A stretch of DNA of 39,367 bases. Source: a virus (Duplodnaviria > Caudoviricetes). Positions 10,307 to 38,928 of this stretch are shown in pieces; position 1 is the first letter of the stretch, and every line of letters starts with the position of its first letter. Location of the stretch: the IMG/VR virus record IMGVR_UViG_3300019874_000013, positions 1 to 39,367 of that record. One strand, given 5' to 3'. The translations under genes and the position numbers were made by a program. The notes under the pieces were generated by a model, which was not told the DNA's origin, did not search any database, and saw nothing but the letters and a program-made list of their open reading frames with translations.

Positions 10307-11068
10307 ATGGAAGAAGAAGTCTTAAATAGCAGTATAGAAGAGGTCGCTCCTCAAGAATCCCAAAACCATAGAGAAGGCACTGAATCGGAGCCTCAAAACT
10401 CGAAGCCGGAAGTCGACAACTGGCAGCAGAGAAATTTTAAGGCTATACGAGACAGGCAAAAAGAACTCGAAAGAGATCTGCAAATGCAAAGGGATCTGAA
10501 TGAAAAGCTAATGGCGATGGCCAAAGCATCTCAGCCTCCTCCGCCTATAGAGGTAGATGAATTAGATTCCATATCCGATGAGGAGTACGTTCCCAAGGGC
10601 AAGTCTAAAAAGCTAGTCCGTAAGGAAGTAGAACCTTTGAGGAAAGAGATAGAGGAGCTTAAAATGCAACTCAATCGACGGGATAAACAAGATCAATTCC
10701 ACTCTTTAAAGCGTCAATTTGCCGATTTCGACGAGGTGGTTAATAACCAAACTATGGCCCTCCTTGAAGAAACAGAACCTGAGTTGGCTGAGACTATACT
10801 AGACCTTAAAGACCCTTATAAAATTGGTGTACAGACTTATAAATACATCAAAGCTCTTGGAATCCAAGGTAAATTACCGGATGCCAGACGCGCAAAGGAA
10901 GTAGATCAGAAGCTTGCGGCAAATGCTAAAACCATTCCGTCGCCTATAGCTTCAGATAAACGTCCAATGGCCCAAGCATTTAGGCTTACCGAAGCCGAGA
11001 AGAGCAAGCTTTATGAGGAGATGACAGGTTACGCTCGATTGGCATCTTCCGTGCCGGAGATGGGTTAA
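10307..11068 (+). CDS. Putative capsid scaffolding protein
   Basis: Acidic N-terminus and coiled coil; immediately upstream of the capsid gene. Confidence 0.7.
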   Translation: MEEEVLNSSIEEVAPQESQNHREGTESEPQNSKPEVDNWQQRNFKAIRDRQKELERDLQMQRDLNEKLMAMAKASQPPPPIEVDELDSISDEEYVPKGKSKKLVRKEVEPLRKEIEELKMQLNRRDKQDQFHSLKRQFADFDEVVNNQTMALLEETEPELAETILDLKDPYKIGVQTYKYIKALGIQGKLPDARRAKEVDQKLAANAKTIPSPIASDKRPMAQAFRLTEAEKSKLYEEMTGYARLASSVPEMG

Positions 11069-11102
11069 ATCTCGGCCTACTTAGGAAAAAAGTAGGCTAA
11101 AA

Positions 11103-13885
11103 ATGACAGTATCATTAAATACTATGCCGTCGCAGATTCAGCAACGGTATAACCAAAAGCTCTTGAGTACTCCAGAGCGCAACTTGATCCACAATTTATT
11201 TGCGGTTCCTGTTGAGCTACCGGATAACCAAGGGTTTATTGATAGACAGTCTCGTTATGACAGACTAGATCTATTCCCAGTGCCTCTCGATGATGCACAA
11301 ACTAATCCTCCTTCTCAGCTATTGAATAGAGTGGATGTCGATAATTGCAGTCGACATATTAGTGATTATTATGCTTTAGCGGCGTAATTGTGCAGGGTTC
11401 GTGTCTATGCAACATATATTGTGTTGACCAGACAAGTAACCATCACTAACGAGGATAGAATTGTGTCCTCGATAAACCTAAGATGATTGACTTGGAAGCC
11501 CTCGCAGCTCGACTGGAGGGTAACAAGGGGCAAGTGAATATAAGGATTTAACTGGATGATCGCGAAACCGGGAATTAATAGAACGAAGCTCAAGGTAACA
11601 TTGATATCGAATATCATGTATTTCATGAGATACTTCTTTCTTTTGAAGCCTTCGATGAGGAGTGAATGTATTTCTCATTCTCATCATGATTTCGCATTGT
11701 CTTTTTTTAACAATCAAGTAGGGATAAATTTTTGGCATAAGAGAGTCAAGCGTAGAACCGGAAATCTGAGCATTATAAATAGTTCTCTCCTTAAGAGAGA
11801 CTCTAGTTTTTCGCTCTTGTTGGTTGTTCGTTGTTTGAGCTTTTTCCTTAACCCAATCCATCAAGTCTTTGTCAGTGTTGCTGATTTTGATATAGGTGTG
11901 ATAGTTAAGAAGATCATGGGTAGCTTTAGTGCGGAAGAGTCCGATGAAAAAGCACCCTTCGCCATCAATAATCCCTGCGAGGTAAGCAAGTTCTATATCT
12001 GTCATATAAACCTTTTGTTTAAGACAGTATAGTATACAGCTAATACTTATATTTGTACAGCCTGAACGACTAAGTTCTTGGGACGCGAAAGCGTATGCGA
12101 TAGTCTGAACTCCACGAATAAATAAAGGTGGAGAGGGAAGGCCGAAGAGCCATCCCCGCCTATGTAAAACAGATTTACATAGGTCATAAAAGTAACAGAT
12201 TGCCAGTCCTTAATAGCGCGGCCGCTCGTTTGGGCCAAGCAATGAGAGAAACTCAGGACGTTCTACAGCGCGATAACCTCGAAAGTACAGCTTCGGTGAT
12301 AAATTGCGTCGGTAAAAAATATACTGCCGACCTTAAATCTTCTCTGATTGACTTGGAACTCCTCGCCGCATAAGCGGACGGACAACAAGGCGGAACCCAG
12401 TTTACATGGGACCGTGAACGACTAAGTGAGAAGACTTCAACGTCCACTGAACATGGATCTCTTGAAGAAGCGATAGTCTGAACTCTATGGAAACATAGAG
12501 AGGGAGACCCGAAGAGGTTTCCCCGCCTAGGAAACTAGGTCATAAAGTAACAGATTGGGTGTTAACGGCGACTTGCCTACAGAAATGTCGATTAGCGATG
12601 TTGACGATGTTGTTACCGTTCTACAAGGTAACAGCGCAGAGTATATCACTAATATGATCGAAGCGACGAACCAGTTTTCGACTTCGGCCATCGGCGATTC
12701 TTATGGTTGCATGTTGACCACAAGAATGATCCCTGTGCTGAACAACATTGCTGGATTTACTCGTAAGCAGTTCTATCCAAATAGTACAACTCATACTCTT
12801 TCGTCAGAATGGGGTGGAGTTAATAACGTCCGCTTCTTTATTTCGGAGCAGGGTTCAGTTACACCTAATGCGTCTCTTAATGGTGCCGACATCGCTAACT
12901 GCTTTGTTGCTGCTAAAGAGTCGTATAAAGTCGTATGGCAGACCGGAGGTAAGGCTAAATTTATTTACTTGCCACCTGGGTTAAATGATTGGGCCCAGGA
13001 TAAATCTTCTCTGATTGACTTGGACCTCCTAGCTGCGTAAGCAGTGGAAGACAAGGGCGAAGATTAAATGGTAATATATCTTACCACAGGTTATAATAAA
13101 CACAAAAAGGATGTGTTTGTGGTAACTAGTAGGATATGTACCACATGTAACATTGAGAAGTCTTTCGATGAGTTTGGAAATTCAAAGAAAGGTAAATGGG
13201 GAAAAAGAGAGGTTTGCAAACCTTGCAAGCGTATTAAAGATAGAGAATACGAAAGGGCGAATCCCGACAAGATGACTGCTAAACATGATAGATGGGCAAA
13301 GAAAAATGAAGCTCATTTAGCAGCATACAGACATAAACGATATGAAAATAACCCTGAGCCTTACAAGGCCAGTTCAATAGAATATCGTAAGAAAAAGAAT
13401 AACGAGCCTGTGAAGAAGTATAAATATAAATACCCTCACAAAAAAAAGGCACATTTATATGTTGAATTAGCGGTCCATTATGGGCATCTGATTAGACCGG
13501 ATCGTTGTTCTAAATGTGGGATAGAATGTAAACCTCAAGGTCATCATCATGATTATGGCCTGCCTCTAGACGTTACATGGTTATGTCCAAAGTGTCATGG
13601 CTTTGAACATAGATTTAAACACGCTGAACGACTAAGTGAGAAGACCATTGTTGAAGACAGTGGAAGCGATAGTCTAGACTCTATGGAAACATAGAGAGGG
13701 AGATCCGAAGAGGTTTCCCCGCCATCGTGAAAAGGTGGTCAGTAGGTCTGCAAGGGGCTGAAAGTAATAGTTTTGACAATAATGACCCTTGCATGCTTCG
13801 GCACACAGCCGGCGCAAGCTTTTACCAGGGACAATGCATTACCAATGACCTATGGATGCAAAACTTACGCTCAACAGGCATCTAA
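11103..13885 (+). CDS. Major capsid protein (N4-gp56-like), spliced: join(11103..11342,11391..11456,12203..12313,12558..12981,13776..13885), 316 aa
   Basis: Exons total 951 nt in one open frame: ...LNRVDVD|CRVRVYATYIVLTRQVTITNED|PVLNSAAARLGQAMRETQD...NCVG|GVNGDLP...PPG(Y)|NNDPCMLR...STGI*. TNEDPVLN..A..LG and E.G.V.NVRF resemble N4-gp56-type capsids. Confidence 0.88.
11343..11390 (+). other. 48-nt coreless group-I-like mini-intron (insertion 1)
   Basis: Follows a U and ends in G. P1 is ATGTCGAT/GTCGACAT with U.G at the junction; P10 is TGCA/TGCA. Contains an in-frame stop. Confidence 0.7.
11457..12202 (+). mobile_element. Group I intron 2 (746 nt) with antisense LAGLIDADG ORF
   Basis: P1 CGAGGAT/GTCCTCG (U.G); P3 CCTAAGA/TCTTGGG; P7 GACTA (12068)/TAGTC (12101); terminal G at 12202. 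Confidence 0.92.
11478..12005 (-). CDS. LAGLIDADG homing endonuclease (single motif)
   Basis: LAYLAGIIDGEGC, ISNTD and IYPYLIVKKRQ; AAAAGG RBS. Confidence 0.92.
   Translation of the reverse strand: MTDIELAYLAGIIDGEGCFFIGLFRTKATHDLLNYHTYIKISNTDKDLMDWVKEKAQTTNNQQERKTRVSLKERTIYNAQISGSTLDSLMPKIYPYLIVKKRQCEIMMRMRNTFTPHRRLQKKEVSHEIHDIRYQCYLELRSINSRFRDHPVKSLYSLAPCYPPVELRGLPSQSS
12314..12557 (+). mobile_element. Group I intron 3 (244 nt, no ORF)
   Basis: P1 GTCGGT/GCCGAC (U.G); P3 TCTTCTC/GAGAAGA; P7 GACTA (12420)/TAGTC (12474); P9 CTCTATG-GAAA-CATAGAG; terminal G at 12557. Confidence 0.93.
12982..13775 (+). mobile_element. Group I intron 4 (794 nt) with HNH ORF
   Basis: P1 CCTGGGT/GCCCAGG (U.G); P7 GACTA (13630)/TAGTC (13670); P9 GAAA hairpin; terminal G at 13775; splicing creates a TAC codon. 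Confidence 0.92.
13068..13694 (+). CDS. Intron-encoded HNH-like (Zn-binding) endonuclease
   Basis: CTTC...CKPC N-terminus; RPDRCSKC...GHHHDYGLPLDVTWLCPKCH. Confidence 0.8.
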   Translation: MVIYLTTGYNKHKKDVFVVTSRICTTCNIEKSFDEFGNSKKGKWGKREVCKPCKRIKDREYERANPDKMTAKHDRWAKKNEAHLAAYRHKRYENNPEPYKASSIEYRKKKNNEPVKKYKYKYPHKKKAHLYVELAVHYGHLIRPDRCSKCGIECKPQGHHHDYGLPLDVTWLCPKCHGFEHRFKHAERLSEKTIVEDSGSDSLDSMET

Positions 13886-13897
13886 GGAGGATCAATT

Positions 13898-14968
13898 ATG
13901 TTACCTTACTCAATGATTGCTGGCGGAAGATTTAATCTTACCACAGCGAATATTGCATCGGGCTTAGACCTAGTATGCAACAGCCAGAACCCACCTGATT
14001 ATATCGAGTTAAAGTCGATTACGGGATGGGGTGAATCAGGAGATGCGCAAGCTATTGAATGGTTCTGGGAAAAGTCAATGGCACAAGGAACAGCTAAAGG
14101 TATTCTTCAAGCTTCAGAAGCTTCTACCCCACAGTTACCAGCCATGACTTCCTACACAATTGCTGCTAATGGTATCACTACCTATGACACAGCAAATCCA
14201 CCTTCTTTTGCAGCTTTAGCCTCATCTGACATCAATAAAACGACTTTTGTCGTTACGATGGCAAACACAGCGGCTATTTCTGTGGGTGATTTAGTTCGCG
14301 TTACTGTTCCTGTGGATATGTACCAAGTAGCTACTTATGTTTTCGGAGTGACAGCAGTTACCGCTAACACAAGTATTACACTTGGTTATATGGCTAGCGC
14401 TGTGAGTGCTGGATTAGCTGCTTTTGCTAACAATGCCGATACAGCAAATATCACTAAGTTCATTCAGAATAGAATGTACCCAAGATATGCTTATATCGCT
14501 TTGATTACACAAGCTGCTCAAGCCGTTGTTTATTTCACTGCACCTAACGACTTTACCCCAGGTGAAATCGTTTCTTTCAGAGTCTCTTCCGCTTATGGAA
14601 TGGACGAAATTAACAACAAACCAGCTCGCGTGCTTAGCGTAACAAATAGTGCAACCGTATCTTCGATCACAATTGATCTAGATACATCAGGATTCACCGC
14701 ATTTTCTTTCCCAACATCGGCAGTAGCCCTTGCTGGTGTAAGCCCTGCGGTGGTAGTGCCTTCATCGTCTGGCGTAGTGCCTCTCAATGGTAGTGCTACT
14801 AATCCTCAGCAGCCTCCTGGTACTAATCTCTTAGATACGTTTGATGATAGAAACGTGAGAGTTGTTCATTTAGGCGCTGGCCTGTTTAACGTGGCATCTC
14901 ATGCCTCAGATAACGGAGACGTTTGGATGTATAGATTCTTCAAATATGATGACTATAAGACAGTATAG
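13898..14968 (+). CDS. Virion structural protein (beta-rich, FCCH-like domain)
   Basis: AAGGAGG RBS right after the capsid stop; Ala/Thr/Val-rich; ITQAAQAVV...GMDEINN. Confidence 0.75.
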   Translation: MLPYSMIAGGRFNLTTANIASGLDLVCNSQNPPDYIELKSITGWGESGDAQAIEWFWEKSMAQGTAKGILQASEASTPQLPAMTSYTIAANGITTYDTANPPSFAALASSDINKTTFVVTMANTAAISVGDLVRVTVPVDMYQVATYVFGVTAVTANTSITLGYMASAVSAGLAAFANNADTANITKFIQNRMYPRYAYIALITQAAQAVVYFTAPNDFTPGEIVSFRVSSAYGMDEINNKPARVLSVTNSATVSSITIDLDTSGFTAFSFPTSAVALAGVSPAVVVPSSSGVVPLNGSATNPQQPPGTNLLDTFDDRNVRVVHLGAGLFNVASHASDNGDVWMYRFFKYDDYKTV

Positions 14969-15030: not shown

Positions 15031-15645
15031 TTGAAAAAGGAGTGTAAGTTGAAGATTTGTACATGGTGTAAAGAAGATAAGCATTTATTGGAGTTCCCTA
15101 AGAGAAAGACTACTAAAGATGGACTATATCCTTGGTGTAAGGAATGTTGTAGAAAAAAGACCAAGGATTATGTTTTAAAAAATCCTGAGAAAGTTAAAGA
15201 AACTTCAGAGAAGCGAAAAGACAAGCACCTTGAAGCCGCTAGAATTTACAAAAAGCTTCATAAAGAGAGTTTAGCAAAAAAGCAAAAAATTTATTATGAG
15301 ATAAATGCGGAAGCGTTAAAAGAAAAGGCAAGAGCATATTCTAAGAACTGCACGGAAGACCAAAAGAAAGCTCGTAGGGAATACTATCTTAAATGGAAAG
15401 AATCCGATAGTGGCAGAGAATATCTTAAGAACATAGCAAAAGAGAGAAGAATAAAATATAGAAAACAGTTTAAAGCTTCTCAGAAAGTTACAGATGCCGT
15501 AAGGTCTGGCAAATTAATTAGACCGGAAAATTGTAGTTTATGTGGAATGATAGGAAAAATAGAAGGCCATCACGCAGATTATTCAAAGCCTCTCGAGGTT
15601 ATTTGGGTATGTCGTAAATGCCACATGGCCATTCATAGAATGTAA
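15031..15645 (+). CDS. Free-standing HNH-like endonuclease
   Basis: CTWC...CKEC; LIRPENCSLC...GHHADYSKPLEVIWVCRKCH; same architecture as 13068-13694. Confidence 0.8.
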   Translation: MKKECKLKICTWCKEDKHLLEFPKRKTTKDGLYPWCKECCRKKTKDYVLKNPEKVKETSEKRKDKHLEAARIYKKLHKESLAKKQKIYYEINAEALKEKARAYSKNCTEDQKKARREYYLKWKESDSGREYLKNIAKERRIKYRKQFKASQKVTDAVRSGKLIRPENCSLCGMIGKIEGHHADYSKPLEVIWVCRKCHMAIHRM

Positions 15646-31333: not shown

Positions 31334-31404
31334 AGGGAGCATCGGACGGCCCGAAATTACTCTTACAAAGTGATGACCTCAGCGTTCGACTCGCTGGCGC
31401 CCTA
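31334..31404 (+). tRNA. Atypical or degenerate tRNA-Val(TAC)-like element
   Basis: T arm CAGCG-TTCGACT-CGCTG; anticodon arm TTACT-CTTACAA-AGTGA; acceptor AGGGAGC/GCGCCCT with one mismatch; short D arm; no CCA. Confidence 0.55.
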
Positions 31405-36676: not shown

Positions 36677-37537
36677 GTGCGACTAAGAATTCCTCTACCT
36701 AACTATACACAAGTTCCAAACGATCTTTTCGATCACTGGCTTCCCCACCTTAACGAGTCCGAACTAAAAGTTTTGCTCGTCGTCATTCGTCAAACGCTCG
36801 GCTATCACAAACAAGCCGACGTAATAAGTCATTCGCAGATACAAAAAAAGACTGGCCTCTCGAAGGCTAACTGCTTGATAGGGGTGAAGTCTCTCATCTC
36901 TAAAGGGGTCATCCGAAAAACCGTACATGGCGTTCTTGGTACAGAGCAAGTTTCCTATGAATTAATTTTCGCCGAAGAGCCAGCAATTCAGCCTATTGCC
37001 GTAGAGGAGGGGGGGGGTATTGTTCCGATACTGGGGGGGGTATCGCAACAATACCCACAAAAGAAAGAGACAAAAGAAAAAGAACAACAACAAAAGCCTT
37101 CGGCTGCTGCTGTTTTCTCTAAAGCGATTGAAGACAAGCTACAGGCTCTTGGGGTAACAAAGACTGAGCGTAAGAAATGGAATTACTCAGAAGCTCAAGT
37201 CTCTCAGGCATTTGCCGTGACAGGGGAGGTGCCAAGAGATAATCCTCTTAAGACTTTCCGCGCAGCGCTCAAAGATGGCTGGGAGCCGACGAAGCCTCGG
37301 CGCAAAAAAGGTCAGGTGGATATTGAAACTTGGGTGCGTGGAATCAATGCCAATCTGCCTAAAGACCTTCATGTGCGAATTGAAGGTGACGACGTTGTTT
37401 TCCTTGATAAAAGGTTTGATGGACATAAAAATATAATTGTTAAATCGAAATTACCTATTAATAATTTAAATGTTGATTTAAACAAAAGAGAGCAAATACA
37501 ATCTAACCTCAAACAAATAGTTCAGGAGAGACCATGA
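36677..37537 (+). CDS. Replication initiator (lambda O-like N-terminal domain)
   Basis: YTQVPNDLFD...ELKVLLVVIRQTLGYHK...ISHSQIQKKTGLS; followed by dnaB. Confidence 0.85.
   Translation: MRLRIPLPNYTQVPNDLFDHWLPHLNESELKVLLVVIRQTLGYHKQADVISHSQIQKKTGLSKANCLIGVKSLISKGVIRKTVHGVLGTEQVSYELIFAEEPAIQPIAVEEGGGIVPILGGVSQQYPQKKETKEKEQQQKPSAAAVFSKAIEDKLQALGVTKTERKKWNYSEAQVSQAFAVTGEVPRDNPLKTFRAALKDGWEPTKPRRKKGQVDIETWVRGINANLPKDLHVRIEGDDVVFLDKRFDGHKNIIVKSKLPINNLNVDLNKREQIQSNLKQIVQERP
37010..37055. repeat. Two tandem 23-bp iteron-like repeats (putative origin)
   Basis: GGGGGGGGTATtGttcCGATACt and GGGGGGGGTATcGcaaCAATACc, followed by an A-rich tract. Confidence 0.55.
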
Positions 37538-38928
37538 TAGATTTCACTAAGCTTTCCGACCCCGATTCCGAAGTTGTCTTGCTGGGTACTATGCTCTCGT
37601 CGATCAATGCGGTAAACAACGCGATGGACGTTCTTGGAGAGGGAGATTTCGTCAAAGCCGAGCACGTGAAGATATTCCGAGCTATGCAGAAGCTCTACAG
37701 GCTAGACCACGAGATCGAACCTTTCTCGGTAATCCGAGTTGTCGAGGAGGATAACAAGAACTTCGACGGCTTTTACGTCATCAACTTGCAGCAGTTCAAC
37801 ACTTCAGGCGAGGGGCTTTACCAGATCGAGAAGATCAAGGAGCTATCTCGTATGCGTCGGCTTTTGGTGGCTTTCCATGAGAATTGCGACATTGTCCAAA
37901 ACAAGAAGGGGACTTCCGAGGAGATCATTGCAAAGATCTGCAAGGACATGGACTCCATTGTCTCCGAAAAGTCGGCTCCCGAGAAGAATTACGACGACGT
38001 AATATGGCAAAACTTTAGAGATACCGGCGAGCCCTATTGGAAATACCTCGAAAAACGAATGGAAATGAGCCTTAGAGGCGAGATCGTGTTCGATGGTGTG
38101 TCTACCCACTACCCGAGGTTAGATAAGGCTTTAAATGGCCTAAATAACGGTCATTTCATTGTTGTCGGCGCAAGACCGGGAGTTGGAAAGACAACTTTCT
38201 TGATAAACCTCATTCGAAACGTCTGTCTTAAGCAGAAGCAGCCAGCCGCCTTTTTCAGCTTAGAGATGTCAACCGAGGATGTTTTTATCAACCTAACTTG
38301 CATAGATGCCGCAGTCCCAAGCAAGAGCGTAAGGGCCGCGACTATCGAGCCGGACGAGTTTAACCGTTTCATTGGAGCTGCCGAAAAGCTAAGAGGAGTG
38401 CCGCTTTACGTTGACGATCAGGGATCGCTCAGGATAAGCCAGATCATTGCTCGAGCTAAGCGCTACGTCTCTGTTTACGGGATCAAGGTGATTTTCGTTG
38501 ACTATCTCACCCTTGTCACGGGCGATGTGAGATATTCTAACAAACAAGAGGAGATTGCCGAGACTTCAAAAGCGTTGCGGGCTTTAGCTAAAAAGCTAAA
38601 CATTCCGATAATCTGCATTTGCCAGCTCAATCGGGATTCGGAGAAGGATCAGCGCATACCGCGCAAATCCGATTTGAGGGAGTCTGGGCAGATCGAGCAA
38701 GACGCTCATTCCATCCTAATGCTTCATAGGCCAGATATGAATGATCCACTTGGCAAGCCTGGCCTTATGCAAGTGCATATAGTCAAAAACCGTTTCGGCG
38801 AAGAGTGCGTGATAGATTTTTCTTTCCAGAAGGAATCGGGATTGATGGAAGAAATCGCGCCTATTCAATATTTTCACCCACCCGTGGAAGATTACCAGTC
38901 ACCCGAATTCGATAGGTATAATGTATGA
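37534..38928 (+). CDS. dnaB: Replicative DNA helicase
   Basis: GARPGVGKT, FSLEM, VDYL, QLNR, SDLRESGQIEQDA, KNRFG. Confidence 0.97.
   Translation: MIDFTKLSDPDSEVVLLGTMLSSINAVNNAMDVLGEGDFVKAEHVKIFRAMQKLYRLDHEIEPFSVIRVVEEDNKNFDGFYVINLQQFNTSGEGLYQIEKIKELSRMRRLLVAFHENCDIVQNKKGTSEEIIAKICKDMDSIVSEKSAPEKNYDDVIWQNFRDTGEPYWKYLEKRMEMSLRGEIVFDGVSTHYPRLDKALNGLNNGHFIVVGARPGVGKTTFLINLIRNVCLKQKQPAAFFSLEMSTEDVFINLTCIDAAVPSKSVRAATIEPDEFNRFIGAAEKLRGVPLYVDDQGSLRISQIIARAKRYVSVYGIKVIFVDYLTLVTGDVRYSNKQEEIAETSKALRALAKKLNIPIICICQLNRDSEKDQRIPRKSDLRESGQIEQDAHSILMLHRPDMNDPLGKPGLMQVHIVKNRFGEECVIDFSFQKESGLMEEIAPIQYFHPPVEDYQSPEFDRYNV

Follow-up and report, generated by a model that had tools for sequence, protein, structure and literature searches.

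When the capsid gene of a phage is split by introns, what becomes of the protein fragments made by ribosomes that read from an exon into an intron still present in the mRNA? The major head protein gene at positions 11103 to 13885 of a 39,367-nt phage record (IMGVR_UViG_3300019874_000013; "the window" refers to this whole stretch, positions 1 to 39,367) raises this question, as it is split by four inserts, of which the first is a mini-intron of 48 nt. A sequence-only reading had proposed that these inserts encode, in the upstream exon's reading frame, a C-terminal degradation tag resembling the ssrA tag of transfer-messenger RNA (tmRNA), so that truncated capsid fragments are destroyed. Based on a comparison with related capsid genes, we conclude with good, though not full, confidence that the intron-encoded tail is a selected ssrA-like degradation signal for capsid fragments.

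The window represents a phage with terminase, P22-like portal, and scaffold-like and capsid genes. The capsid gene is of the N4-gp56 type, and its inserts lie at 11343 to 11390, 11457 to 12202, 12314 to 12557, and 12982 to 13775 on the + strand; each is preceded by U and has G as its last base. Excising all four in silico gave a 316-aa protein without a stop. Intact relatives, annotated at their source as N4-gp56 family major capsid proteins, have 315 aa and are up to 90% identical to the window in exon 4; one of them (P0001) matches the major head protein family phrog_1357. A profile-based spliced aligner gave identical boundaries for all four inserts. Capsid proteins of cultured phages are only 22 to 24% identical.

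Translation from exon 1 into insert 1 yields NCSRHISDYYALAA followed by a stop, ending in YALAA-stop at 11370 to 11387 (stop codon 11385 to 11387). Translation into introns 3 and 4 yields KKYTADLKSSLIDLELLAA and LNDWAQDKSSLIDLDLLAA, each followed by a stop and both ending in LLAA-stop (12359 to 12373 with the stop at 12371 to 12373, and 13026 to 13040 with the stop at 13038 to 13040). The tails of these three inserts, which we refer to as tagged, are NCSRHISDYYALAA, KSSLIDLELLAA, and KSSLIDLDLLAA, and their final LAA is encoded by TTA GCG GCG, CTC GCC GCA, and CTA GCT GCG. Translating the window reproduced the three peptides, the stops, the LAA codons, and the phase-1 position of intron 4 as first described. 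Two points of that description needed correction. It omitted intron 2, in which the read-through ends in RIVSSINLR-stop (stop codon 11484 to 11486), and the tags are therefore found in three of the four inserts; intron 2 also contains an out-of-frame relic, DLEALAA, at 11489 to 11509. Moreover, introns 3 and 4 are related and have their tails at one shared place in P5, so the window provides two independent cases, not three.

The comparative sample was drawn from a protein search (the best 80 of 192 matches), a genome search, and pattern scans targeting the mini-intron, 3' core motifs (blind to the tail; among the matches listed), and the P1 helix at insertion site 102. The capsid family was present in 283 of 548 sequences and forms five clades, with the window in clade A. 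Among 423 inserts, 21 were excluded, 17 with a P1 of <5 bp and 4 without the U..G ends, and removal of 157 duplicates from the remaining 402 left 245 distinct inserts; locus L366 was left out before counting, its length and match position being the same as those of the window. In-frame translations end in Ala-Ala-stop in 118 of the 245 distinct capsid introns, compared with 0 of 490 translations in the other two frames, and the enrichment over the other frames that the sequence-only reading had put forward as its test was thus strongly borne out. The residue preceding Ala-Ala is Leu in 50 of the 118. For clade A inserts without a mini-intron upstream, Ala-Ala-stop occurs in 68 of 82, compared with 7 of 3,205 dinucleotide shuffles (0.2%). 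A background of long open reading frame (ORF) ends, 23 of 253 in Ala-Ala, held tagged capsid fragments and was set aside; among the neighboring non-capsid ORFs used instead, 0 of 248 end in Ala-Ala-stop.

Within clade A, Ala-Ala-stop is the ending of 45 of the 57 full introns that lack a mini-intron upstream (51 of the 57 end in Ala) and of 23 of 25 mini-introns, and 16 of 17 insertion sites are tagged. In clades C to E, the count is 19 of 22. Before codon 50, only 1 of 17 introns is tagged, compared with 85 of 144 full introns past it without a mini-intron, and directly behind a mini-intron 1 of 40 is tagged. At both kinds of place, a tag would be dispensable. Fifteen tails are tmRNA-like in having Y-A-x-A-A or YALVA (e.g., YALAA, YAIAA, and YAVAA), and several tails extend the resemblance to upstream residues of the tmRNA tag (DNYAIAA and EYALAA). 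Two P22-type capsid introns encode near-complete tmRNA-like tags, ANDSSFALVA-stop and ANDQSFALVA-stop, and a third (GenBank MW202674) encodes QDAYFLLAA-stop. The P1 regions that encode these three peptides are at L136:3140-3180, L098:3385-3430, and L554:1947-1994.

Could the ending be a by-product of how the RNA folds? Ala-Ala-stop is spelled by a GC-rich P5 stem carrying a GUAA- or AUAA-type loop, and selection might act only for an early in-frame stop that lets the intron fold. Such stops have been described for many phage group I introns, where they were read as a folding aid (PMC3984707; here and below, papers are cited for their accessible sections), and for T4 td, which stops at intron bases 1 to 3 and has no tail (PMC8565351). 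In introns 3 and 4, the stop is in the P5 loop, and pairing of the Ala codons is predicted for 42 of 62 P5 tails, so that RNA shape contributes. Against this stand the complete lack of Ala-Ala-stop in the out-of-frame translations and several further observations. All four Ala codons are used at both Ala places together with all three stop codons; 79 distinct 12-nt endings occur. The tails are located in P5, the P6 region, the bodies of mini-introns, the downstream exon, P1 loops, and P2 of terminase introns, i.e., also where no P5 exists. Through the lengths of their P1 loops, 51 of 54 clade A introns over phases 0, 1, and 2 keep the P4 motif in the frame of the exon, compared with 9 of 21 untagged introns behind a mini-intron. 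A frameshift results when the mini-intron has 38 or 41 nt, and the tail then ends within capsid codons 81 to 84; in these codons, TGC CGC GTA A (read as CAA-stop) is present in 14 of 15 frameshifting alleles, compared with 2 of 68 alleles that have no intron and 0 of 13 in which the mini-intron has its own tag. In tagged introns, ribosomes run a median of 19 codons across P1, P3, and P4, compared with a median of 9 behind a mini-intron, and close relatives keep P5 yet lose the tail. We therefore regard the by-product explanation as largely refuted by the sequences compared and as very improbable. Because of the synonymous freedom, the frame kept across phases, the non-homologous tail places, and the altered exon codons, selection looks to act at the level of the peptide, beyond RNA shape.

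In bacteria, transcription and translation are coupled, and there is no nonsense-mediated decay. Through this coupling, ribosomes would enter the capsid introns before splicing, and read-through would add the short intron-encoded tail ending in Ala-Ala-stop. With its four introns, a late gene that is strongly translated would in this way give rise to many N-terminal capsid fragments (94, 158, and 299 aa from insert 1, intron 3, and intron 4, respectively). A ClpXP-type host protease would recognize the free Ala-Ala end and degrade the fragment, and its removal would protect head assembly, which, we infer, such fragments poison in a dominant-negative manner.

The Escherichia coli tag is AANDENYALAA, of which ALAA binds the ClpX pore and is essential for degradation (PMC8512704). 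Di-alanine is the usual end of ssrA tags, and chlamydial ClpXP did not degrade GFP-VDD (PMC9601184); some tmRNAs encode Ala-Ala only (PMC11915505). The window tails have the free C-terminal hydrophobic-Ala-Ala ending of an ssrA-type degron. The SspB-binding segment AANDENY is absent from them and partially present in some relatives, and neither Rfam nor ARAGORN detected a tmRNA or a tRNA-like domain with a resume codon in the window. ClpXP is the protease that we favor, with modest confidence.

Alternatively, the tail might be selected as a peptide for a reason other than proteolysis, e.g., fast termination and ribosome release or the blocking of scaffold binding. This possibility is consistent with the comparative evidence, which shows selection on the last residues and not degradation itself, and with the divergence of clade B tails from Ala-Ala. 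It leaves aside that tails such as DNYAIAA, EYALAA, and ANDSSFALVA reproduce residues from further upstream in the tmRNA tag, and that the loss of tails in short N-terminal fragments fits the clearing of fragments. We know of no Ala-Ala termination signal, and consider a function of this kind improbable.

Several observations weigh against a degradation tag, in addition to the paired Ala codons of the P5 tails. The introns share ancestry, and the counts are not independent trials. In clade B, only 22 of 82 inserts end in Ala-Ala-stop and 44 of 82 in Ala, and many tails are of the type VALS, VFN, or GVS. Also, 15 of the 144 full introns past codon 50 without a mini-intron stop early and are untagged. 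ALAA needed a preceding linker in vitro, and GFP-ALAA was removed in vivo even without ClpP (PMC8512704), so that proteases other than ClpXP have to be considered. Finally, the P22-type coat protein itself ends in VAA, so that not every Ala-Ala terminus has to be a degron, and the ending must be exposed to act. As to clade B, it is a guess that its tails represent a second class of degron for another host protease; examples of in-frame tails are VVALS, VAIS, VVFN, and YGVS, seen at loci such as L126, L095, L431, and L134. Taken with these reservations, a selected degradation signal remains our preferred explanation of the tails.

Are the inserts group I introns? In inserts 2 to 4, the last exon base U pairs with G in P1 and the last intron base is G, in agreement with the splice rule for group I introns (PMC11915505). 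In an alignment of 29 short introns including intron 3 of the window, the helices P3, P4, P5, and P6 and the P7 pseudoknot are paired in 98.7% of cells with two-sided changes in 19 of 24 pairs, compared with 31 to 51% pairing in slid controls, and the G-C guanosine site in P7 is invariant (29 of 29). The R and S motifs are at 12068 and 12099 (intron 2), 12420 and 12472 (intron 3), and 13630 and 13668 (intron 4). No Rfam family reached its gathering score in the window, and none was found at E values up to 5 in 11000 to 14000. By their anatomy, inserts 2 to 4 are predicted group I introns. Intron 3 (244 nt) has no ORF, and the phase-1 intron 4 has a + strand endonuclease ORF at 13068 to 13694 (208 aa; phrog_2340, E of 1e-31; phrog_1035, endonuclease VII). 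Intron 2 has a LAGLIDADG-like endonuclease ORF on the - strand at 11478 to 12005 (175 aa; PF00961, E of 2e-4, just under the cut-off). This antisense ORF, which ends over P4/P5, is also present at loci L052 and L160; in most site-102 introns, the ORF is on the sense strand. The antisense ORF was considered as the cause of the tag loss in intron 2 and rejected, as L052 and L160 carry the ORF yet are tagged.

Insert 1 is different. The sequence-only reading did not note that it is no complete group I intron: with 48 nt, it has neither the catalytic core P3 to P8 nor an R or S motif, and we do not class it as a group I member. It is not an assembly artifact. A freshwater contig from a second run matches 11315 to 11465 without mismatch (with only 28 letters to the left of the insert), and in related DNA from that run 11342 is joined exactly to 11391. 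Insert 1 does have the parts of a group I substrate. A P1 is formed by the guide at 11350 to 11357 and exon bases 11335 to 11342 with the U-G pair, a P10 by 11346 to 11349 and exon bases 11391 to 11394, and the last base is G. In addition, a strand at 11359 to 11366 forms 8 bp with 11442 to 11449 in exon 2, directly 5' of P1 of intron 2; we refer to this pairing of the stretch after P1 with the exon just before the next P1 as the tether.

We identified 44 distinct mini-introns of 29 to 59 nt in three clades. P10 has at least 3 bp in 42 of the 44 and covaries with the exon (TGCA/TGCA and GGCA/TGCC), and compensatory changes in P1 and P10 are seen among the 25 mini-introns of clade A. In all 40 mini-introns with a mapped neighbor, the next intron is at most 110 nt away; the remaining 4 are at the edge of their locus with the start of a site-102 intron visible. 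A tether of at least 8 bp is present in 36 of the 40, compared with 9% of controls, and its sequence changes with the partner site. In the minimum-energy fold of the window, P1 of the mini-intron, the tether, and P1 of intron 2 lie side by side (z of -3.1). None of 25 clade A alleles combines a mini-intron with the lack of introns at both 88 and 102; this count is biased, as many of the alleles came from the site-102 scans. In seven distinct mini-introns from the unbiased protein search (best 80 of 192) and the mini-intron pattern scan, all have a partner intron. A match between the last three bases of the mini-intron and those of its partner was weak (21 of 40, compared with a shuffled mean of 15) and was rejected as a signal.

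Tagging follows the presence of the mini-intron. Among site-102 introns, the tag is present in 0 of 25 that have a mini-intron and in 2 of 2 that do not, and L344 is a third tagged case without a mini-intron. In the five closest site-102 introns, on the branch of intron 2 of the window, the two without a mini-intron are tagged and the three with one are untagged. These data suggest that the intron 2 ribozyme removes both itself and the mini-intron, docking the two P1 helices in turn, which we consider likely. Of a group I intron, the mini-intron would have kept no more than the substrate elements, base-paired beside the 5' splice site of intron 2, and its tagged stop would guard the pair, with the tag of intron 2 itself lost. 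Such coupling would account for the untagged intron 2, and the loss of its own tag implies that ribosomes seldom reach intron 2 unspliced. The contribution of this locus is the link between the two features: the tag resides in the mini-intron and is lost from its partner.

Removal of the 48-nt insert by other means, with the degron reading left intact, is a different possibility: an intron that acts in trans after its excision, a different intron of the gene, an enzyme of the host, or bypassing by the ribosome could be responsible. In favor of this, lengths of 39, 48, and 57 nt are multiples of three. Yet many mini-introns have 38 or 41 nt and hence shift the frame, and covariation is seen for P1, P10, and the terminal G. 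The tether mostly lands 6 to 9 nt before the splice site of the next intron, whichever intron that is, and the clade A alleles, with the bias noted above, include none with a mini-intron and no intron at 88 or 102. We consider these other routes unlikely and continue to favor removal by the intron 2 ribozyme. For the degron and the shared ribozyme taken together, our confidence is only slightly better than even.

Other arrangements of neighboring introns were also seen. L263 and L358 have a mini-intron at codon 80, an intron at 88, and a site-102 intron, and both full introns are untagged. In L218, L119, L458, and L494, full introns located 40 to 53 nt after a preceding full intron are untagged too, a hint that full introns lying this close together may splice in a coupled order. 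The capsid gene at L218:2-3409 is broken by seven inserts with exons of 19 to 46 nt.

Outside capsid genes, the counts refer to ORF ends and not to mapped splice sites. Three of 5 terminase ends are AA or VA, 1 of 5 tape measure ends is tagged (LLVA-stop in the cultured phage phiCP13O), and 0 of 6 ribonucleotide reductase ends are. This pattern fits a stronger need for the tag in virion proteins and is confounded by host. Generic intron finders performed weakly on non-capsid genes, giving 6, 19, and 8 candidates from at most 112 loci, with 43 right and 20 unmatched in a benchmark. The large-phage terminase introns at L117, L165, and L154 have the tails GRKAA, CALAA, and CAYVA, in L117 and L165 in a P2 hairpin, and an unannotated intron is present in the phiCP13O tape-measure gene (L552:823-1500; JF767208.1).

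In the window, the + strand capsid exons are exon 1 (11103 to 11342, 80 codons of the N4-gp56-type major head protein), exon 2 (11391 to 11456, 66 nt), exon 3 (12203 to 12313), exon 4 (12558 to 12981), and exon 5 (13776 to 13885, with the true stop). A free-standing + strand ORF 3' of the capsid region (15031 to 15645) has, by eye, C-terminal Cys/His motifs like those of the intron 4 endonuclease. Other genes include the scaffold-like gene (10307 to 11068), a GroES-like gene (1099 to 1356, by eye), tRNA-Val(tac) (31334 to 31404), and a DnaB helicase (37534 to 38928). A genome search for the host gave 7 matches, mostly phage-sized contigs in unrelated bins. In one of these, L216 (G001:C2, about 250900), a frameshifted phage part of 41% GC abuts DNA of 61% GC; as it may be either a prophage or a chimeric contig, neither this link nor the tmRNA tag of its bin was used. 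The helicase is only about 30% identical to DnaB of plasmids; its start may resemble that of chlamydial DnaB, and a chlamydial host is a speculative possibility.

A literature search, in which most subscription journals and supplements were outside scope, yielded no report of natural tails of the ssrA type encoded by introns, nor of tethered coreless phage introns. Known group I introns in phage protein genes share with those of the window the U-G pair at the 5' splice site, the terminal G, the P3 to P7 core, homing endonuclease ORFs, an in-frame stop that truncates the unspliced product, and occurrence in capsid genes, as in mycobacteriophage LittleE and Tuc2009 (PMC3706429). They differ in that ribosomes in the window run 14 to 19 codons to Ala-Ala and one insert is coreless; no degron is mentioned for the known introns in the accessible sections. 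With the tmRNA/ssrA and ClpXP system (PMC8512704, PMC9601184, and PMC11915505), the window shares the C-terminal hydrophobic-Ala-Ala on a truncated protein, and some tails of relatives match Y/F-A-L-A-A or nearly the whole tag. Unlike ssrA tags, the window tags are encoded in cis and end at a normal stop, with no tRNA-like domain, no trans-translation, and the SspB-binding part mostly absent.

The nearest idea is that of yeast HAC1 (PMC5114014), in which a short intron-encoded peptide targets the unspliced product for degradation. HAC1 is eukaryotic and, as described there, involves one regulated intron that is not self-splicing, whereas here a bacterial degron would be mimicked by many mobile phage introns that are predicted to be self-splicing. 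In engineered systems, namely trans excision-splicing ribozymes and spliceozymes (PMC2532722 and PMC4094466), a group I core likewise excises a segment outside itself and joins the flanks; these act in trans with a guide supplied by the ribozyme, whereas the mini-intron brings P1 and P10 itself and has a cis tether to a natural intron. Putative group I introns of 56 to 81 nt in fungal small-subunit rDNA (PMC3160393) are similarly short with group I-like ends, but are located in nuclear rRNA, have no coding tail, and in the accessible sections are not said to have a tether to any full intron. SIBR-Cas (PMC8565351) combines a group I intron, T4 td, with an ssrA tag, as a synthetic proposal and in reverse, with the tag attached after splicing.

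Self-splicing introns in the most highly expressed structural genes raise the question of their cost, and a hard-coded degron, if true, would answer it at the level of the protein; selfish RNAs would then have converged on the host tmRNA signal. The hundreds of natural tail variants could serve to map protease specificity in uncultured hosts, and Ala-Ala-ended "short capsid genes" in phage annotations signal hidden introns. A coupled mini-intron, if true, would provide a natural example in which one ribozyme excises a second, coreless intron, as previously seen in engineered systems only, and would bear on the origin of trans-acting splicing. By a narrow balance of judgment, we suggest that these introns carry a protein quality-control module that mimics the tmRNA tag and evolved repeatedly, and that coreless satellites of 30 to 60 nt, spliced by a tethered ribozyme, may serve as a tagged checkpoint that bars ribosomes until the ribozyme becomes active; the satellite mechanism, if true, would be categorically new.

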